This document shows positions 5,823 to 26,125 of a DNA stretch of 64,000 nucleotides, piece after piece (the first letter of the stretch is position 1; the number at the start of each line of letters is the position of its first letter). Under the pieces are notes generated by a model, which worked only from the letters and a program-made list of their open reading frames with translations, was not told the DNA's origin and ran no database searches. This DNA comes from an uncultured virus (IMG/VR IMGVR_UViG_3300031787_000087). Lineage: Duplodnaviria > Heunggongvirae > Uroviricota > Caudoviricetes. The stretch lies in IMG/VR virus record IMGVR_UViG_3300031787_000087; one strand, 5' to 3'. A program made the translations under genes and the position numbers.

Positions 5823-6236
5823 TTAAACTGTTAATTCACTAGTTGCTGAAGCCTTACGCACGACAATATCGTACTCACGCAAGGCATTCACGCCTGGGGG
5901 CAAGCCATCGCCTACTCTTTCGGACATGAATTCTTTGAAGTTCTTTTGATGGATACGACGCTCCAACAAATCAATCGAGCCTTCTTGCTCGACGAACTCT
6001 TTAAAATGATCCCAATCGGTACAGAAGAACCGCTCTTTCACTGTGCGTGTAACAGTGCCGTGTGATGTGCGGAAACCATTCATGTTGGTCTCGTTACATA
6101 CAGCAAGCATTGCGGCTTGTATTTCTTCCATTGCTTCTTTGAGGTCTGAATCTTGGGAGTCGTATTTTGCCTTCAATTCTTCGCGCATCTTACGAATCTC
6201 AAGATAATCTTTTACTAACGCTTCTCCGTCATTCAT
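5823..6236 (-). CDS. Conserved coiled-coil phage replication-cluster protein
   Basis: 137 aa ORF, strong SD GAAGGAGAG, N-terminal coiled coil, DW..F..F motif. Confidence 0.7.
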   Translation of the reverse strand: MNDGEALVKDYLEIRKMREELKAKYDSQDSDLKEAMEEIQAAMLAVCNETNMNGFRTSHGTVTRTVKERFFCTDWDHFKEFVEQEGSIDLLERRIHQKNFKEFMSERVGDGLPPGVNALREYDIVVRKASATSELTV

Positions 6237-7807
6237 AGTTTCTCTCCTTCGAGTTCATCTTTATACAGGTCTACCAATTTTTCGTGTAGGGACACTTTGT
6301 TTTGCAACATTGCGTACATACGCCGTTCCACCTCAGACCCTTGGAGGTGTATTACTGTCATGCTGTTCTTCTGTCCGACGCGATCGATACGCGCTATACA
6401 CTGTAAGTATGTTTCTACGGACATAACAGGAGACCAAAATATTACTGTGTCAGCCGCAGTTAGGGTAACCCCGTGGGATGCGGCTTGTGGTTGTATCAGC
6501 AGTACTCTTGGGTCTGGGTTCTGCTGAAAGTTTTTAAATACATCTGCACGCTGAAGAGCTGTCACATCGCCAGAGATAATCTCATTAGATACACCAGCGG
6601 ACTCCAAATGCTTCTGCACTAAAGACAGAGTATGTTTGTAGGGTATAAAGATAAGCACCTTATGTAGTGCTTCATCCAATACTTCTTGCAAGACAGACAA
6701 GCGCGGTGTTATATCGAACTCAACGACGTTGCCGTCATCTGTGTAAACAGCCCCGCCTGACAATTGAAGCAAGCGGGTAAGTGAGGCTGCGGCATTAACT
6801 GTGCTGATAGTTTCGCCTGCGGTTTTAATCTGCATCTCTTTGACGAGATCACGATAGTACTTTGATGCTTGTGGTGACAATGGCACTAAGCGTGTTTGAT
6901 AGACCACATCAGGTAGGTCAAGACACTGCGCCTTCTCATAGCGTATAGCGGGTTGCAACGCATCAAACACAGTGACACGCGATTCAGGTTTAGGCGACCA
7001 CTTGAAGCGAGTAACTTGACTCATGACCTTATCGCGCCATGCAGTCTTGTAGCGTGGTACACCATCAGGGTTAACTAGTCTTGCAAGACCAAACGCATCT
7101 TCAGGTGATTGCGCGGCAGGTGTACCAGTCATCATCCACAAGTATGTATCAGGCTTGACTAGTCGTGCTAATGTTTTCCAACGTCTAGTAGCGGTGTTCT
7201 TGTATGCGTTGGCTTCATCAACAATTATCAAATCAAACTTGCCTTCAGCAATAGCTTTCTCAACTACACCTACACCGTCATAGTTGATGATGACAAACTG
7301 ATAGTCACTGCGAATAATTTTTTCACGTTTGGGTGTAGCACCGTGTGCTACGGCACAAGTGCGATGCATTGCAGTCTTGAACAAGTCTGCTTGCCATGCG
7401 CTGTGCATGATTGATAGAGGACAGATAACAAGCGCACGACGCACCTTGCCTTGATTCATCAAGTAGTCTGCCGCCCATATAGCCGCAGATGTTTTGCCTG
7501 TGCCTGCTTCGTTGAAACAGAATGCGCGACGGTGAACGGATAGAAACCGTGAAGTATCTCTTTGATGATCGAAAGGTTGAAACATCCCAGGCCACTCGTA
7601 GTCACGCTCGATTGGCGATGGAACCTTTACGCTATTTGGGAATATACGTGCGAGACGTTGCATCTCGTCAAGACCCCAATACACGATTACGTCTGATACA
7701 CCATCTGTTGTATCAAGCACTTCACTTTTTTCGATGTAGCACTCAATCATCTTTGCTACTTGTGTAGAGCATTGAATCCTAACTGCACTGTTGTCAACTA
7801 TTTCCAT
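6233..7807 (-). CDS. SNF2-family helicase
   Basis: AGTGKT, IVDEA, MTGTP, HGVTLT, QCIARIDRVGQ motifs; start taken at MEIVD. Confidence 0.92.
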   Translation of the reverse strand: MEIVDNSAVRIQCSTQVAKMIECYIEKSEVLDTTDGVSDVIVYWGLDEMQRLARIFPNSVKVPSPIERDYEWPGMFQPFDHQRDTSRFLSVHRRAFCFNEAGTGKTSAAIWAADYLMNQGKVRRALVICPLSIMHSAWQADLFKTAMHRTCAVAHGATPKREKIIRSDYQFVIINYDGVGVVEKAIAEGKFDLIIVDEANAYKNTATRRWKTLARLVKPDTYLWMMTGTPAAQSPEDAFGLARLVNPDGVPRYKTAWRDKVMSQVTRFKWSPKPESRVTVFDALQPAIRYEKAQCLDLPDVVYQTRLVPLSPQASKYYRDLVKEMQIKTAGETISTVNAAASLTRLLQLSGGAVYTDDGNVVEFDITPRLSVLQEVLDEALHKVLIFIPYKHTLSLVQKHLESAGVSNEIISGDVTALQRADVFKNFQQNPDPRVLLIQPQAASHGVTLTAADTVIFWSPVMSVETYLQCIARIDRVGQKNSMTVIHLQGSEVERRMYAMLQNKVSLHEKLVDLYKDELEGEKL

Positions 7808-11877: not shown

Positions 11878-12370
11878 TAGCAATGGCTCGGTTTAGATAC
11901 CAACGCGCCTTGCATAGGTCTTCGTACTTATCACCTTTGTGGTCTGCGCGTGTGATGTACTTCACCACATTGCCTAAGTTGTAATCTAACTTCTTCGCTT
12001 CAATGAAGTCAATAGTCTCGACACCGCCAGTCTTGTAGTGTGGAGGTTCATTGACCATATCAGTGTGATGTTTAGTCACAATGTCCGCACCGCCTTGCAT
12101 AAGCAGTTTGCCTGTGACTGGGTGAGTTCGTACCATAGGTAACGTGGCTAGTCTATCTCTTATCTCAGCGTTAGAACTTACCTTACCTTTGCTCACATTG
12201 AATGCTAGGGTTGTTAGTGGTACTGAGGACGCTGACTTCCTAGCCGTGTATGTTACGTTGTACACAGTATGTAGTTTCACACCACAAGCATCCGCTACCT
12301 CTTTGGGTTTGGCTTTAGGGTTTTTAGCAATGTAAGCAAGTACTTGTTTTGATTTATTCATCTTTGACAT
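11858..12370 (-). CDS. HTH plus DUF3310-like (SaV/T7 gp1.7-like) protein
   Basis: C-terminal DMVNEPPHY..GGVETIDFI...GNVVKYITRA.HK...EDL.KARWYL; N-terminal HTH-like; start MSKMNK with GGAGAG SD. Confidence 0.8.
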   Translation of the reverse strand: MSKMNKSKQVLAYIAKNPKAKPKEVADACGVKLHTVYNVTYTARKSASSVPLTTLAFNVSKGKVSSNAEIRDRLATLPMVRTHPVTGKLLMQGGADIVTKHHTDMVNEPPHYKTGGVETIDFIEAKKLDYNLGNVVKYITRADHKGDKYEDLCKARWYLNRAIANVSNNA

Positions 12371-12435
12371 TTTGTTCTCTCCGTTAAAAAGGGGCTTCTT
12401 CAATTTGGGTTGATGTTTGTGATTTCAAGTTCTTT

Positions 12436-21354: not shown

Positions 21355-21696
21355 TTAAAGTGTGTTGTAGCCAGTGCAGAACTCGTAGAGTTCCACCTCG
21401 TTCTCAGGCTCGAATACAGTTAAACCCTCGAACTCGTTGTCAATGTCGTTGAACTCGTCATAGCCGTAATCTCTTGCTAAGAACTCTAAGTTCTGATTGT
21501 GATAGTCATCTGTGCGAAAGTCTGTGCGCAGATAGTGGTCAACGCCCTGATGCGTATTGCATACTGCCTTCGGGGTTGTAACGCGCAATGCTTTGCGCAT
21601 TGGGCGGGGCAGATAGTGATATGGTCGTTCGAGGACTTTTGGTTGTCTTACTACGACCCGTGTTGTGTTGATGTTATAGACGAAAGATGCTTTCAT
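21355..21696 (-). CDS. Hypothetical early protein with acidic C-terminus
   Basis: Start MKASFV with GGAG SD downstream of promoter. Confidence 0.6.
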   Translation of the reverse strand: MKASFVYNINTTRVVVRQPKVLERPYHYLPRPMRKALRVTTPKAVCNTHQGVDHYLRTDFRTDDYHNQNLEFLARDYGYDEFNDIDNEFEGLTVFEPENEVELYEFCTGYNTL

Positions 21697-21779
21697 TACG
21701 CTCTCCATTGATTGAAATTTCATGACCCCGTGAAATGTTATTTAGCGGGTGAGTCAGGCTACCTCCCGACTCAATTCAG

Positions 21780-21889: not shown

Positions 21890-22400
21890 GTGTTGGAACT
21901 TTGGAACTGGGTTGGAATCACAAAAAAGAGGGGTAAGTATAGTTAAAGTACTAGTAGTAGTAGTAGTATATATAATATATTTATATAATAGTATTATAGT
22001 TTTGTGAGTGAGTACTACATGATTCCAAAGTTCCAAAATTCCAAGAGTTTTGCGTTATGGCTGGCAGTTACCTATCTGCTTAATAAATGGGCAATGTATT
22101 GTTTGTTTAGCACAATGCTTACACTCGCAGGCGATGATGAACGAACGAGATGATGCTCCAAAGTCCGTTGTCCTCAAAAAAAACTGGAATTTTGGAATAT
22201 CCACAGGTTATCCACATTTAGCCGCGTGTAAGTCGTTGATTTCATTAGGTATTTAAAAGTTATCCACGGTTCCAATTTGGTTTTTCAGGTTGGAATTTTG
22301 TTGGAACATTGTTCCGACAAATTGGAACGACTTTGCTCAGTTCCAAAATTCCAGTCCGATTCCAACCCGCTTGGAACTGAGTTGGAATTTTGGAACAAAT
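21890..22400. repeat. Origin-like non-coding region: TTGGAA/TTCCAA hexamer field around an AT-rich (TAG)n/TA core
   Basis: About 15 or more hexamer copies in both orientations; AT-rich core at ~21940-22002. Confidence 0.7.
22197..22268. promoter_or_regulatory. DnaA-box cluster with IHF consensus site
   Basis: ATATCCACA 22197-22205, perfect TTATCCACA 22208-22216, TTATCCACG 22260-22268; AATCAACGACTTA (WATCAAN4TTR) on minus strand 22229-22241. Confidence 0.6.
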
Positions 22401-22513
22401 TTCATGACCCCGTGAAACGCTATTTAAGACGCTTGCCCACGCTCGCGCAGGGACATATAACTGGTCTCAGGGGCAAACAAAAAAGCCCAACCAACCTTGC
22501 GGTCGGCTGGGCT
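22400..22513. repeat. Intergenic module copy 1 (palindromic box + 26-bp conserved block + terminator)
   Basis: TTTCATGACCCCGTGAAA; GACATATAACTGGTCTCAGGGGCAAA 22452-22477; minus-strand hairpin with T-tract 22478-22513. Confidence 0.85.
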
Positions 22514-23142: not shown

Positions 23143-23225
23143 GGTTTCTCCGTTAAAAGCGTTTATGCGACTGACAACCGTCAACCGCTAGATGTTTATT
23201 AGCACAACCTAGCGGAAACCACAAA

Positions 23226-23335
23226 TTTCACGACCCCGTGAAACGCTAAATAGCGCACACGCATACACGCGCAACGACATATAACTGGTCTCAGGGGCAA
23301 AACAAAAACCCCGCAAACCTTTCGGTCTGCAGGGT
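23226..23335. repeat. Intergenic module copy 2
   Basis: TTTCACGACCCCGTGAAA; identical 26-bp block 23276-23301; minus-strand hairpin with T-tract. Confidence 0.85.
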
Positions 23336-24021: not shown

Positions 24022-24121
24022 GTTTAACTCCAAGAAAAACGCGGTGTGACTGACACCGCAAACAGTACCGAACTGAACTGTCCGATAGTTATATATAGCT
24101 GACTCTGAAAAAAGTTTCCAG

Positions 24122-24231
24122 TTTCCTTACCCCGTGAAACTCTATATAGCTCGCACGCATAGACGCACGCGACGACAAATAACTGGTATCAAAAACTCGA
24201 GGCGCAAAAAAAGGGAGCCGAGGCTCCCTTT
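24122..24231. repeat. Intergenic module copy 3 (degenerate) including terminator 24206-24231
   Basis: TTTCCTTACCCCGTGAAA; GACAAATAACTGGTATCA; AAAGGGAGC-CGAG-GCTCCCTTT. Confidence 0.75.
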
Positions 24232-24234
24232 GTG

Positions 24235-24699
24235 TTACTCACATACAAACTTGTATGTCGGCACTTCTTTCACTTCCATGCCTGTCATGATCTTCTTGCA
24301 TGTCGGACTGTCTTCTTTGACATAGGCTGTTATGCACAAATTTACATCGTCTGTATTGATGTAATACTCTTTGTGGTCGTATTGAGCATAGTCTTTTTCT
24401 CTAACAGAATCACTGATTGTTTCCATTGCAGTGTTCAAGATGGAGAGCAAACGCTCGTCTTTGAAACTATCGAGTTCACGCATATACACATTAAAGTGGA
24501 TACGATCTCCAAACATGGAAACAAAGAGTTGATCATCTCTGGTGAAGTTAACAAACAGTGGGGCATACAGTGCGCGAATCAACATACGATCCTTGGTTAG
24601 TTGAGTTGCTTTCTGGTGGAAGGTGTTTGCATCTCGTTTGTAGGTTTTGATCTGATCGTTGATTGCAGTGATCAGTGGGTTTGCTTTGCGTGCTTTCAT
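24235..24699 (-). CDS. Early hypothetical protein
   Basis: 154 aa, GGAG SD, C-terminal S.TCKK..TG..V.EVP.YKFVC motif. Confidence 0.75.
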   Translation of the reverse strand: MKARKANPLITAINDQIKTYKRDANTFHQKATQLTKDRMLIRALYAPLFVNFTRDDQLFVSMFGDRIHFNVYMRELDSFKDERLLSILNTAMETISDSVREKDYAQYDHKEYYINTDDVNLCITAYVKEDSPTCKKIMTGMEVKEVPTYKFVCE

Positions 24700-24761
24700 T
24701 TGGATATCTCCAAGTAGTTGAACATGACTGCATCACTGCAGTTTCGTCTATTAAAGACTCA

Positions 24762-25049
24762 TCAGATGTTCTTATTCTTCAGTAGATAGTTGAGTGACAA
24801 GATACGTTTCTCTTCTTCTTGCGCTTCGTCATCTGCTGGTGTAGTAGGTCTGGCAATGATGCGGACACGCTTGCGATCGATAGCATCACGCGCTACTTCA
24901 CGCTCTACTTCTTGGTAGCAGTAGTTCATTGCTAACATCATGATCTGCCACGCTTCTGCTTTGTTTGTCATACTGTCTGCGGTATCAATCAGTTGCTCTG
25001 CAGTTGGTGTGATAAACATTTGGTTGTGCTTCAATGGGTTAATGAACAT
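24762..25049 (-). CDS. First early gene, hypothetical
   Basis: Start MFINPL with GGAG SD. Confidence 0.55.
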   Translation of the reverse strand: MFINPLKHNQMFITPTAEQLIDTADSMTNKAEAWQIMMLAMNYCYQEVEREVARDAIDRKRVRIIARPTTPADDEAQEEEKRILSLNYLLKNKNI

Positions 25050-25250
25050 AATCAATCTCCAATGTAATGCGACACAACATCGTGTCGTATTTATATATAG
25101 GCATAAATTGGGAGAGAATGCAATTTTTCCTGCCATGCCCGACCCCTATACCCCCAGCCCCCTCTTTTGGCGCTTGGGACTCCCGCACCTCTCTACTCTA
25201 AGATATGCACAAACAACACAGCAAAATCCCAAATCTTGCTATACTGAACC

Positions 25251-25308
25251 CGCAACGCAGTTGCATTTTGTCTCTCCTTCTTTAGGCCCCCCAGTGGGGT
25301 CTTTTTTT
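25251..25308 (+). ncRNA. Candidate ~58 nt anti-SD small RNA
   Basis: Extended -10 TGcTATACT at 25237-25245; GCAAC/GTTGC hairpin; unpaired ATTTTGTCTCTCCTTC; terminator AGGCCCC/GGGGTCT + T-tract. Confidence 0.6.
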
Positions 25309-25404: not shown

Positions 25405-25504
25405 TGTTGGTGACACGTAGTACGGGTTAGCGCCGTATTTACTGGAATTGTGCAAATACCTAGTAAGTTGAACGCCACTGCTTTATGTGAACGTGTTGCC
25501 AACA
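25405..25504 (+). ncRNA. Candidate multi-stem structured RNA
   Basis: 14-bp closing stem with G-U pairs enclosing two hairpins. Confidence 0.55.
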
Positions 25505-25523
25505 CCTATTTTTCTGGTATAGT
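25496..25523 (+). promoter_or_regulatory. Candidate promoter of the packaging/structural operon
   Basis: TTGCCA-16 nt-TATAGT with extended TGn. Confidence 0.55.
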
Positions 25524-25555: not shown

Positions 25556-26125
25556 ATGCAAGAACTCGTTCCTGACATCGAAAGCGATGTCCCATTACCA
25601 GTCTCCGCGACAGAGGCTATGCCAGACCTGTCTCCAAAAGAAGAGTTGGAGATGCGGGCTAGGACGGTAAAGCTGATTTCTGACCTATCGGGTAAACCCG
25701 TAGAACCGGGTCAAGAACACAAGGATCAGGCTAAAGATATAGTACAAACCCTAATGTCTCAGCCCCAAAATGCTGTAAATTTAGCCCAATATCCCAACGA
25801 AACCGTTGCTTATTTGGCTGGAATGGTTGCCCAACACGACGTTATGGTCGTAAAAGAGCTGGCTGACCTTAAGAAATACGTAGTAAATAAGCTGGTTGCT
25901 GAGACCGAACACCCAGATGCCAAGATTCGACTAACAGCACTGCGTGCTTTAGGTGAAGTTGATGGCGTGGATGCATTCAAGAAGCGCTCTGAGGTCACCC
26001 ATAAGCAACAATCTATGGAAGAAGTCGAGAAAGAGCTGCTCGAGACCCTTGCTAAGTTGGAAAAACGCACGATTGACGTGGAAGTTATAGAAATCAAGCA
26101 TGAAAATAACGCCACAACAGATTGA
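25556..26125 (+). CDS. terS: Putative terminase small subunit
   Basis: Helical 189 aa protein directly upstream of and overlapping TerL; RL.AL..LG motif. Confidence 0.55.
   Translation: MQELVPDIESDVPLPVSATEAMPDLSPKEELEMRARTVKLISDLSGKPVEPGQEHKDQAKDIVQTLMSQPQNAVNLAQYPNETVAYLAGMVAQHDVMVVKELADLKKYVVNKLVAETEHPDAKIRLTALRALGEVDGVDAFKKRSEVTHKQQSMEEVEKELLETLAKLEKRTIDVEVIEIKHENNATTD

Follow-up and report, generated by a model that had tools for sequence, protein, structure and literature searches.

An uncultured phage of the Caudoviricetes appears to encode a 57-nt trans-acting RNA with two seeds that share one anti-Shine-Dalgarno (anti-SD) tract, and this RNA would block translation of a histone-H1-like protein of the host and of the phage's own HTH-DUF3310 protein. 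On the sequence comparisons presented here we lean, if only slightly, towards this reading as a whole.

The RNA unit and its genomic setting

The window, that is, the 64,000-nt stretch of record IMGVR_UViG_3300031787_000087 that was analysed, covers most of a phage genome of about 63.4 kb (within the record the sequence recurs with an offset of 63,394). By capsid and terminase the nearest relatives are HTVC023P, DSL-LC04, Pag-Yong1/MinM2 and CRP-901, and the cultured relatives are distant (at most 71% for MCP and at most 51% for terL). Replication genes occupy the minus strand and end at about 25,050, packaging genes run on the plus strand from 25,556, and the RNA unit sits between the two arms (Table 1). 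No integrase was found among the 62 proteins scanned and no tRNA in the window; endolysin homologues, searched for a clue to the host, yielded no host name.

Table 1 Features of the RNA unit, its neighbours and its predicted phage target sites (positions in the window)
Feature	Position	Strand	Basis or remark
Extended −10, TG-n-TATACT, without −35 box	25237..25245	+	TG at 25237-38, TATACT at 25240-45; read directly
Predicted sRNA, about 57 nt	25252..25308	+	Folding, locus comparison, alignment
Weak 5′ hairpin, GCAAC-GCA-GTTGC	25252..25264	+	Loop and 3′ arm make up seed 1
Seed 1, GCAGUUGC	25257..25264	+	Best-conserved element
Pyrimidine tract, CATTTTGTCTCTCCTTC	25264-80	+	Read directly
Variable middle (seed 2)	25264..25272	+	Predicted pairing with start codon and spacer of HTH-DUF3310
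Anti-Shine-Dalgarno tract, UCUCCUU	25273..25279	+	Part of both predicted duplexes
Intrinsic terminator, 7-bp stem (25284-25302) then T/U tract	25284..25308	+	Terminator scan
Promoter-like site directly 5′ of putative terS, 3′ of the sRNA terminator	25496..25523	+	Sequence scan
Putative terS gene	25556-26125	+	
HTH-DUF3310 gene, 170 aa	11858..12370	−	N-terminal three-helix HTH-like domain, C-terminal DUF3310
Predicted target site: SD, spacer and AUG of HTH-DUF3310	12368..12382	−	Match with one extra base, co-variation
Weaker predicted target site: SD of gene 5823-6236	6241..6250	−	Match, weaker co-variation

The extended −10 box, the 5′ hairpin, the pyrimidine tract and the terminator named in the initial annotation were all read directly from the sequence at their proposed places. 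The promoter scan requires a −35 box and thus lists the terminator, not the extended −10. The 59-nt RNA is predicted to form both hairpins and to leave the stretch between them unpaired (z −2.8; an equally good fold arose in 2 of 200 shuffles), and five of the eight bases of seed 1 lie in the hairpin arm. The annotation had recognized the hairpin but overlooked GCAGUUGC within it, which would point to a specific host mRNA. Its statement that the unit holds no ORF is right in that no ORF is conserved; mechanical ORFs, however, do overlap the unit, and an SD with an ATG on the minus strand opens a 22-codon frame. We rejected a minus-strand peptide because 12 members lack this frame and its length varies among the 9 that have the ATG (9, 16, 22, 61 or 64 codons).

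The unit recurs in related phages. Out of 33 terS loci, 5 had no upstream DNA and were excluded; the unit was found in 22 of the other 28 (3 of the 22 being identical to the window) and was missing in 6, which indicates a gain/loss module. A TAnnnT −10 box lies 9-15 nt 5′ of the seed in 17 of the 21 members listed. Among near-complete DUF3310 phages the unit was found in only 2 of 5. Pattern scans and a model, R1, added further members, and these take three formats. In format A the unit has its own promoter and stands ahead of terS. In format B it follows the stop codon of a 360-630-aa late gene by at most about 20 nt, at a convergent junction. Format C, which belongs to a third clade, has a promoter, a longer 5′ hairpin of different sequence that displays the same seed, and a U-rich middle.

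An alignment of 33 members, on which the search pattern imposes a bias, shows no variation at GUUG and the terminator and most variation in the middle; most members lack an anti-AUG CAT, and seed 1 is better conserved than the anti-SD tract. Seed 1 is itself altered in some members (TCAGTTG, TAAGTTG, CGTTG). The terminator stem is paired in 95% of cells, and 3 of its 6 pairs are changed on both sides, in members that were chosen with a stem-containing pattern. As a test independent of the search pattern, we took 106 distinct phage matches to CTCCT plus terminator, collected without using seed 1. AGTTG lay at most 22 nt upstream in 19 of them, versus 132 of 5621 control windows (2.3%); the conservation of seed 1 is therefore more than a search effect. 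In other phages (L300, L375 and L379) a CTCCT tract and terminator stand right 3′ of a gene ending ..YFSKLA.ED, which we take to be gp32-like; these belong to about 430 viral stretches in which CTCCT precedes a GC terminator.

The conserved promoter-terminator unit, known from sequence alone, supports the earlier proposal of a self-contained trans-acting sRNA gene, and it is very probable that the unit encodes a real sRNA. Four sequencing runs considered for a transcript are probably DNA. A cis-acting leader, in which promoter and terminator would gate the late operon with the short RNA as a by-product, would agree with the position of the unit on the late strand 250 nt 5′ of putative terS, and with the host unit described below, which likewise precedes a gene. 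Lambda pR′-tR′ is such a gate. We nevertheless regard this explanation as highly improbable: terS has its own promoter-like site 3′ of the terminator, with similar −10 boxes at related loci, terS remains intact in the 6 of 28 loci that lost the unit, and in format B the last late gene is followed, past its stop codon, by seed and terminator, and no gene lies further downstream on that strand.

The intergenic regions of the early genes hold features of other kinds. A complete hammerhead ribozyme core (24720-24771, minus strand) stands between two early genes, about 20 nt 5′ of the ATG at 24699. It is a known kind of phage feature and scores under the Rfam cut-off; 18 matches with compensatory stems were found in 15 of the 34 sources scanned. 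Repeated modules on the minus strand (21696-21730, 22300-22480, 23200-23305 and 24060-24230) consist of a terminator followed by GAGACCAGTTATATGTC-like and TTTCACGGGGTC-like motifs, and are probably regulator sites or processing signals. At locus L011 (1150-1330), a ATAAATCCCAAACTTGCACAAC-like unit forms tandem repeats just 5′ of the promoter of the sRNA, which may be signals for packaging or for an origin.

A phage gene as predicted target

The initial annotation had proposed that the tract pairs near-perfectly over the start of the HTH-DUF3310 gene and also with the SD of gene 5823-6236. Both matches lie where it had placed them (−19.0 and −19.4 kcal/mol), and no other site in the genome is as good for the tract, its own antisense strand aside. 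In this genome alone, however, the near-perfect match is within chance, as 26% of 500 tracts with a shuffled middle reach an equally good start site (among 77). HTH-DUF3310 as a target is supported by co-variation, not by the 14-nt match.

We compared own with swapped RNA-mRNA pairs, with row and column means removed and 5000 permutations, for 46 gene groups that each occur in at least 5 of 17 sRNA-bearing contigs. HTH-DUF3310 was the best of the 46 (z −4.5 over 10 lineages; 0 of 5000 permutations), its own-phage pairs beating swapped pairs by 4.7 kcal/mol. The signal survived every leave-one-out and a permutation within clades (p=0.0017; 9 lineages, with the near-duplicate G741 left out), so that the check by seed-target covariation in related phages, suggested in the annotation, came out in favour of this gene. 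Gene 5823-6236, DUF7307-like at a score under the Pfam cut-off, came second (z −3.0, p=0.0014) but was not significant within clades (p=0.11), and the support for its proposed role as a target is weaker; the third-ranked group had p=0.02. The predicted duplex with HTH-DUF3310 in the window joins CAUUUUGU and ACAAAAUG. G753 has a different sequence on either side, yet the two still pair, as CAUGGU/ACCAUG at the start codon and UCCUUGG/CCAAGGA at the SD. We conclude from these comparisons that the HTH-DUF3310 mRNA is probably a target of the RNA.

A general silencer of middle genes, as the annotation had suggested, does not emerge. The other 44 groups lack a comparable signal, and the best site in the phage's own genome is no better than in foreign ones: in a best-site-per-genome test the own genome came 9th of 14 for the window RNA, no general advantage was seen over 11 seeds, and the first rank of G016 was its own antisense strand. 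In G014, a format-B phage, a further gene of the phage itself has a start region (31080, minus strand) to which the seed pairs over about 14 nt (−26.7 kcal/mol); judging from this pairing, the gene addressed by the second module may differ between clades.

Could the RNA regulate the host alone, repressing the H1-like mRNA discussed below, with the DUF3310 fit a by-product of start-region style or phage-sequence origin? The chance-level match in the single genome would agree with this, as would the low rank of DUF3310 among own genes in 4 of 10 lineages (18/25, 32/79, 14/33 and 7/15), the changed DUF3310 site opposite an unchanged seed in G001, and two members (L016, L023) with almost no middle. 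The lack of a comparable signal in 44 gene groups of the same genomes, and the persistence of the DUF3310 signal within clades and in every leave-one-out, make this explanation improbable in our view.

The DUF3310 domain is labelled nucleotide kinase by PHROG. The HTH-DUF3310 protein has no sequence match in PDB, and a structure model of low confidence (pLDDT 62) gave no fold match at E≤0.001, all matches to HTH domains being at E>0.3.

A host histone-H1-like mRNA as predicted target

GCAGUUGC is complementary to host histone-H1-like mRNAs at nt +4 to +11. Together with UCUCCUU it is exactly complementary to AAGGAGA..AUG-GCAACUGC, which occurs in H1-like genes of the GTDB family that includes Roseateles; we take this family to correspond roughly to Comamonadaceae/Sphaerotilaceae. 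These genes start AAGGAGA..AUGGCAACUGC, the AAGGAGA being usual in H1-like genes of that family, and from the seed match we infer that the host of the phage belongs to it. An SD followed by ATGGCAACYGC occurs in 56 of 61 Roseateles-family genomes (in 53 with the exact T), and the reversed control in 2 genomes. The exact-T start pattern is present in 20 of 121 genomes across the order and in 21 of 201 across the phylum; a looser host pattern was too permissive for counting. Among 30 loci read, 24 encode MATAKK-type PAKK-repeat H1-like proteins, 3 with a SWIB tail. Above the Pfam cut-offs, HC2 was found in 2 and SWIB in 3 of the 8 tested. The function of PAKK proteins in this family is assumed, by analogy with Hc2-type proteins of Chlamydia.

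The codons opposite the seed appear fixed at silent positions. A codon-blind search returned GCA-ACT in 115 of 138 matches, by a hand count in which not all matches were confirmed as gene starts. From the start-codon frequencies of genome G066 about 9% would be expected, and 1 of 12 MAT genes has it there. The first wobble base outside the seed varies (GCG, GCA, GCT, GCC). An alternative role of GUUG as a wobble anti-AUG is less favoured, as the exact 8-mer match accounts better for the family.

We also ranked the H1 gene among 1170 host start regions, which were called by a purpose-written script in 1.18 of the 2.6 Mb of G066, a sample chosen to include the H1 gene. It was 5th for the window RNA, 5th in the median over 27 members (range 1-48), and 2nd, well clear of the 3rd, when members were combined; for format C it was only 9th to 426th. 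Raw duplexes were stronger at the host H1 sites (median −27.1, n=35, versus −21.3), and after opening costs host and DUF3310 sites were about equal (medians −14.2, n=35, and −13.5), energies that are partly circular since the host sites were found using the seed complement. Taken on its own, the host H1-like mRNA is rather likely to be a target, judging from these sequence matches; that both it and the HTH-DUF3310 mRNA are targets has, we estimate, an even chance.

In two Roseateles-family genomes (L565, L586) a 503-aa transporter-like gene likewise starts with SD-ATGGCAACTGC; the seed may target this gene too.

A host unit with the same seed

When 151 Roseateles-family genomes were searched with R1, 12 had matches, of which 6 are one degP-lepA intergenic unit. 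It comprises a −10 box, a hairpin bearing an invariant GCAGUUGCC, and a terminator (for example, L478:1501-1567), and it carries the seed of the phage RNA in the hairpin loop. A strict pattern finds the unit in 46 of 71 genomes (control 0). The remaining 25 include 22 readable lepA loci, 10 with the seed, 1 with a variant and 11 without it, so that the unit with the seed is present in 56 of the 71 genomes. All 56 have the canonical H1 start, versus 7 of the 11 seed-less genomes (Fisher p=4e-4, from a hand tally uncorrected for kinship or incomplete genomes, with the gene of G072 not read). G046 and G059 have lost the host seed, and both carry the H1-like start only with drifted codons.

RNAalifold pairs GUUG of the seed with an upstream CAAC, whereas single folds mostly put the seed in the loop; because the two disagree, the RNA modelled upstream of lepA could possibly adopt two folds. 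The unit has no Rfam match. In other families the seed was absent at lepA in four genomes and the unit was absent by pattern in five, and R1 gave weak matches only on five genomes of mixed families. A strict pattern run across GTDB gave 63 matches, none of which had the phage-unit terminator when read; the lepA unit escaped it because its 3′ half differs. We regard the unit as an uncatalogued sRNA-like RNA and, from its seed, as a predicted repressor of histone-H1-like mRNAs.

A second host unit with the same seed (L467:1501-1560, genome G155) lies behind CTGT-N8-ACAG, which we take to be LexA-box-like, and TATACT. This SOS-box version of the seed occurs in 8 of 201 genomes, versus 6 control matches, and is sporadic in the family.

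The phage RNA might instead regulate phage genes only, HTH-DUF3310 and perhaps 5823-6236, with GCAGUUGC serving a structural, processing or protein-binding role and no pairing with host mRNA. Such a regulator would suit the co-variation test, which singles out exactly these two genes, and the partial pairing of seed 1 in the window RNA. JA04, an Rfam family unrelated to the phage unit, has the same 5′ hairpin, and the host unit, 59-199 nt 5′ of lepA, could be a lepA leader. We consider this reading unlikely, as it leaves unexplained why H1-like genes of two architectures keep silent codon positions fixed to the complement of the seed, why the codons drifted in the two genomes that lost the host seed, and why the H1 gene ranks as it does across the 27 members.

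Discussion

Pairing over the SD and start codon blocks translation initiation. In the mechanism that we propose, host RNA polymerase would transcribe the sRNA soon after phage entry, the 5′ hairpin would open on contact with the host mRNA, and seed 1 and the anti-SD tract would clamp both sides of the H1-like start codon, the phage thereby reusing the host's own riboregulatory site. This would lower the synthesis of a lysine-rich, DNA-compacting host protein that would otherwise coat the phage DNA, and the middle would cap the phage DNA-binding/nucleotide-kinase-like protein, HTH-DUF3310. A broader reading is tentative and, by our estimate, falls somewhat short of an even chance: freshwater podophages would have adopted the seed of a so far undescribed, family-wide host sRNA that controls H1-like nucleoid proteins, remodelling it into no fewer than three formats. 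In its other half, held with the same reserve, a fixed module would strip the host nucleoid protein and an evolvable module would track the phage DNA-binding gene.

If these readings are true, one 57-nt RNA couples host chromatin with the phage's own programme, and RNA mimicry of a host riboregulator is an anti-nucleoid strategy in which phages without a visible integrase use an HnrS-like trick by copying a host seed. A major freshwater family would then share a new, conserved sRNA-histone circuit, from the lepA-upstream RNA to the H1-like mRNA. It would become possible to test directly what PAKK-repeat proteins do during phage infection, and the seed would be a sequence tag that assigns uncultured phages to hosts.

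Neither the phage RNA nor the lepA-upstream unit was found in the literature searched; supplementary motif tables lay outside the search, and an earlier description is possible. In the portion covered of a 2025 review of phage sRNAs (PMC12197685), the word 'histone' does not occur. By sequence, the phage RNA would share its mode of action with IhtA and HnrS and is similar to suhB, RF02278 and JA04, at scores below every family cut-off. No Rfam family reached its cut-off for the window or related phage loci, and at the gathering cut-off neither the window nor 16 related loci gave a match.

The likeness to suhB/MmgR (RF00519) consists, in the source excerpts, in a short length, a 5′ GUUG motif and a C/U-rich anti-SD tract followed by an intrinsic terminator; SuhB is described there as blocking SD regions (PMC3346310, bioRxiv 10.64898/2025.12.09.693200). 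RF00519 is, however, alphaproteobacterial, the internal hairpin of its model is absent from the phage RNA, and the window scores 17.6 bits versus a cut-off of 41 (27.5 for the best of 20 related loci). JA04 (RF02732) is described in part of its source as a family of Aggregatibacter/Pasteurellaceae with an A-rich middle and unknown function (PMC4144887). Its consensus begins with 14 nt identical to the 5′ hairpin of two phage members (L005, L006), which score 33.4 and 28.9 bits versus a cut-off of 81, the window not being among the matches listed; this likeness may be convergence.

RF02278, the toxic or double-hairpin sRNAs, comes from the same bacterial order as the inferred host. Excerpts describe RNAs of 57-92 nt with CU-rich unpaired tracts predicted to lie over ribosome-binding sites (PMC5688073, PMC4603805). 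In the comparison with the phage RNA only the 3′ half aligns (21.1 bits for the window and 31.7 for the best related locus, versus a cut-off of 50), and RF02278 is without the GCAGUUGC seed. A double hairpin with a CU-rich first loop was not found; the phage CU tract is single-stranded between hairpins and the loop is GCA. That the phage RNA is a generic anti-SD RNA damping many mRNAs, like such betaproteobacterial toxic small RNAs, seems hardly credible to us. The weak RF02278 match, the exposed CU-rich tract and the occurrence of CTCCT before a GC terminator in about 430 viral stretches would be in line with it, but conservation is lower in the anti-SD tract than in seed 1 and the specificity signals indicate one host gene and one phage gene.

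The closest parallels in predicted action are two RNAs already known to control, respectively, a bacterial H1-like gene and, from a phage, a nucleoid protein. The seed in a hairpin loop of Chlamydia IhtA is described, in the part of PMC4355289 covered, as pairing over about 7 nt at the AUG of hctA and blocking its translation; hctA is histone-H1-like, with first codons conserved at the nucleotide level. HnrS is, in the part of PMC13502914 covered, a 66-nt prophage sRNA of EHEC that pairs with the ribosome-binding site of hha and represses it, and its authors call it the first phage sRNA against a nucleoid protein. Like these RNAs, the phage unit runs from promoter to terminator without a conserved ORF, and its conserved seed is complementary to conserved or co-varying start regions. 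It shares with IhtA the pairing, here predicted from sequence, with the start region of a histone-H1-like gene, and with HnrS the short, phage-encoded form and a predicted target mRNA for a host nucleoid-associated protein. IhtA, as far as the same excerpts go, differs in being chromosomal, 107 nt long, of other sequence and dependent on loop 1 only, whereas in the phage RNA an anti-SD clamp and a further seed aimed at the phage would be added. HnrS is carried by lambdoid prophages and acts on Hha, the partner of H-NS (PMC13502914, in part). In contrast, the RNA described here belongs to an HTVC023P/CRP-901-related phage with no integrase among the 62 proteins scanned, its predicted target is an H1-like PAKK protein, its seed is that of a host unit, and a phage gene would be targeted along with the host one.
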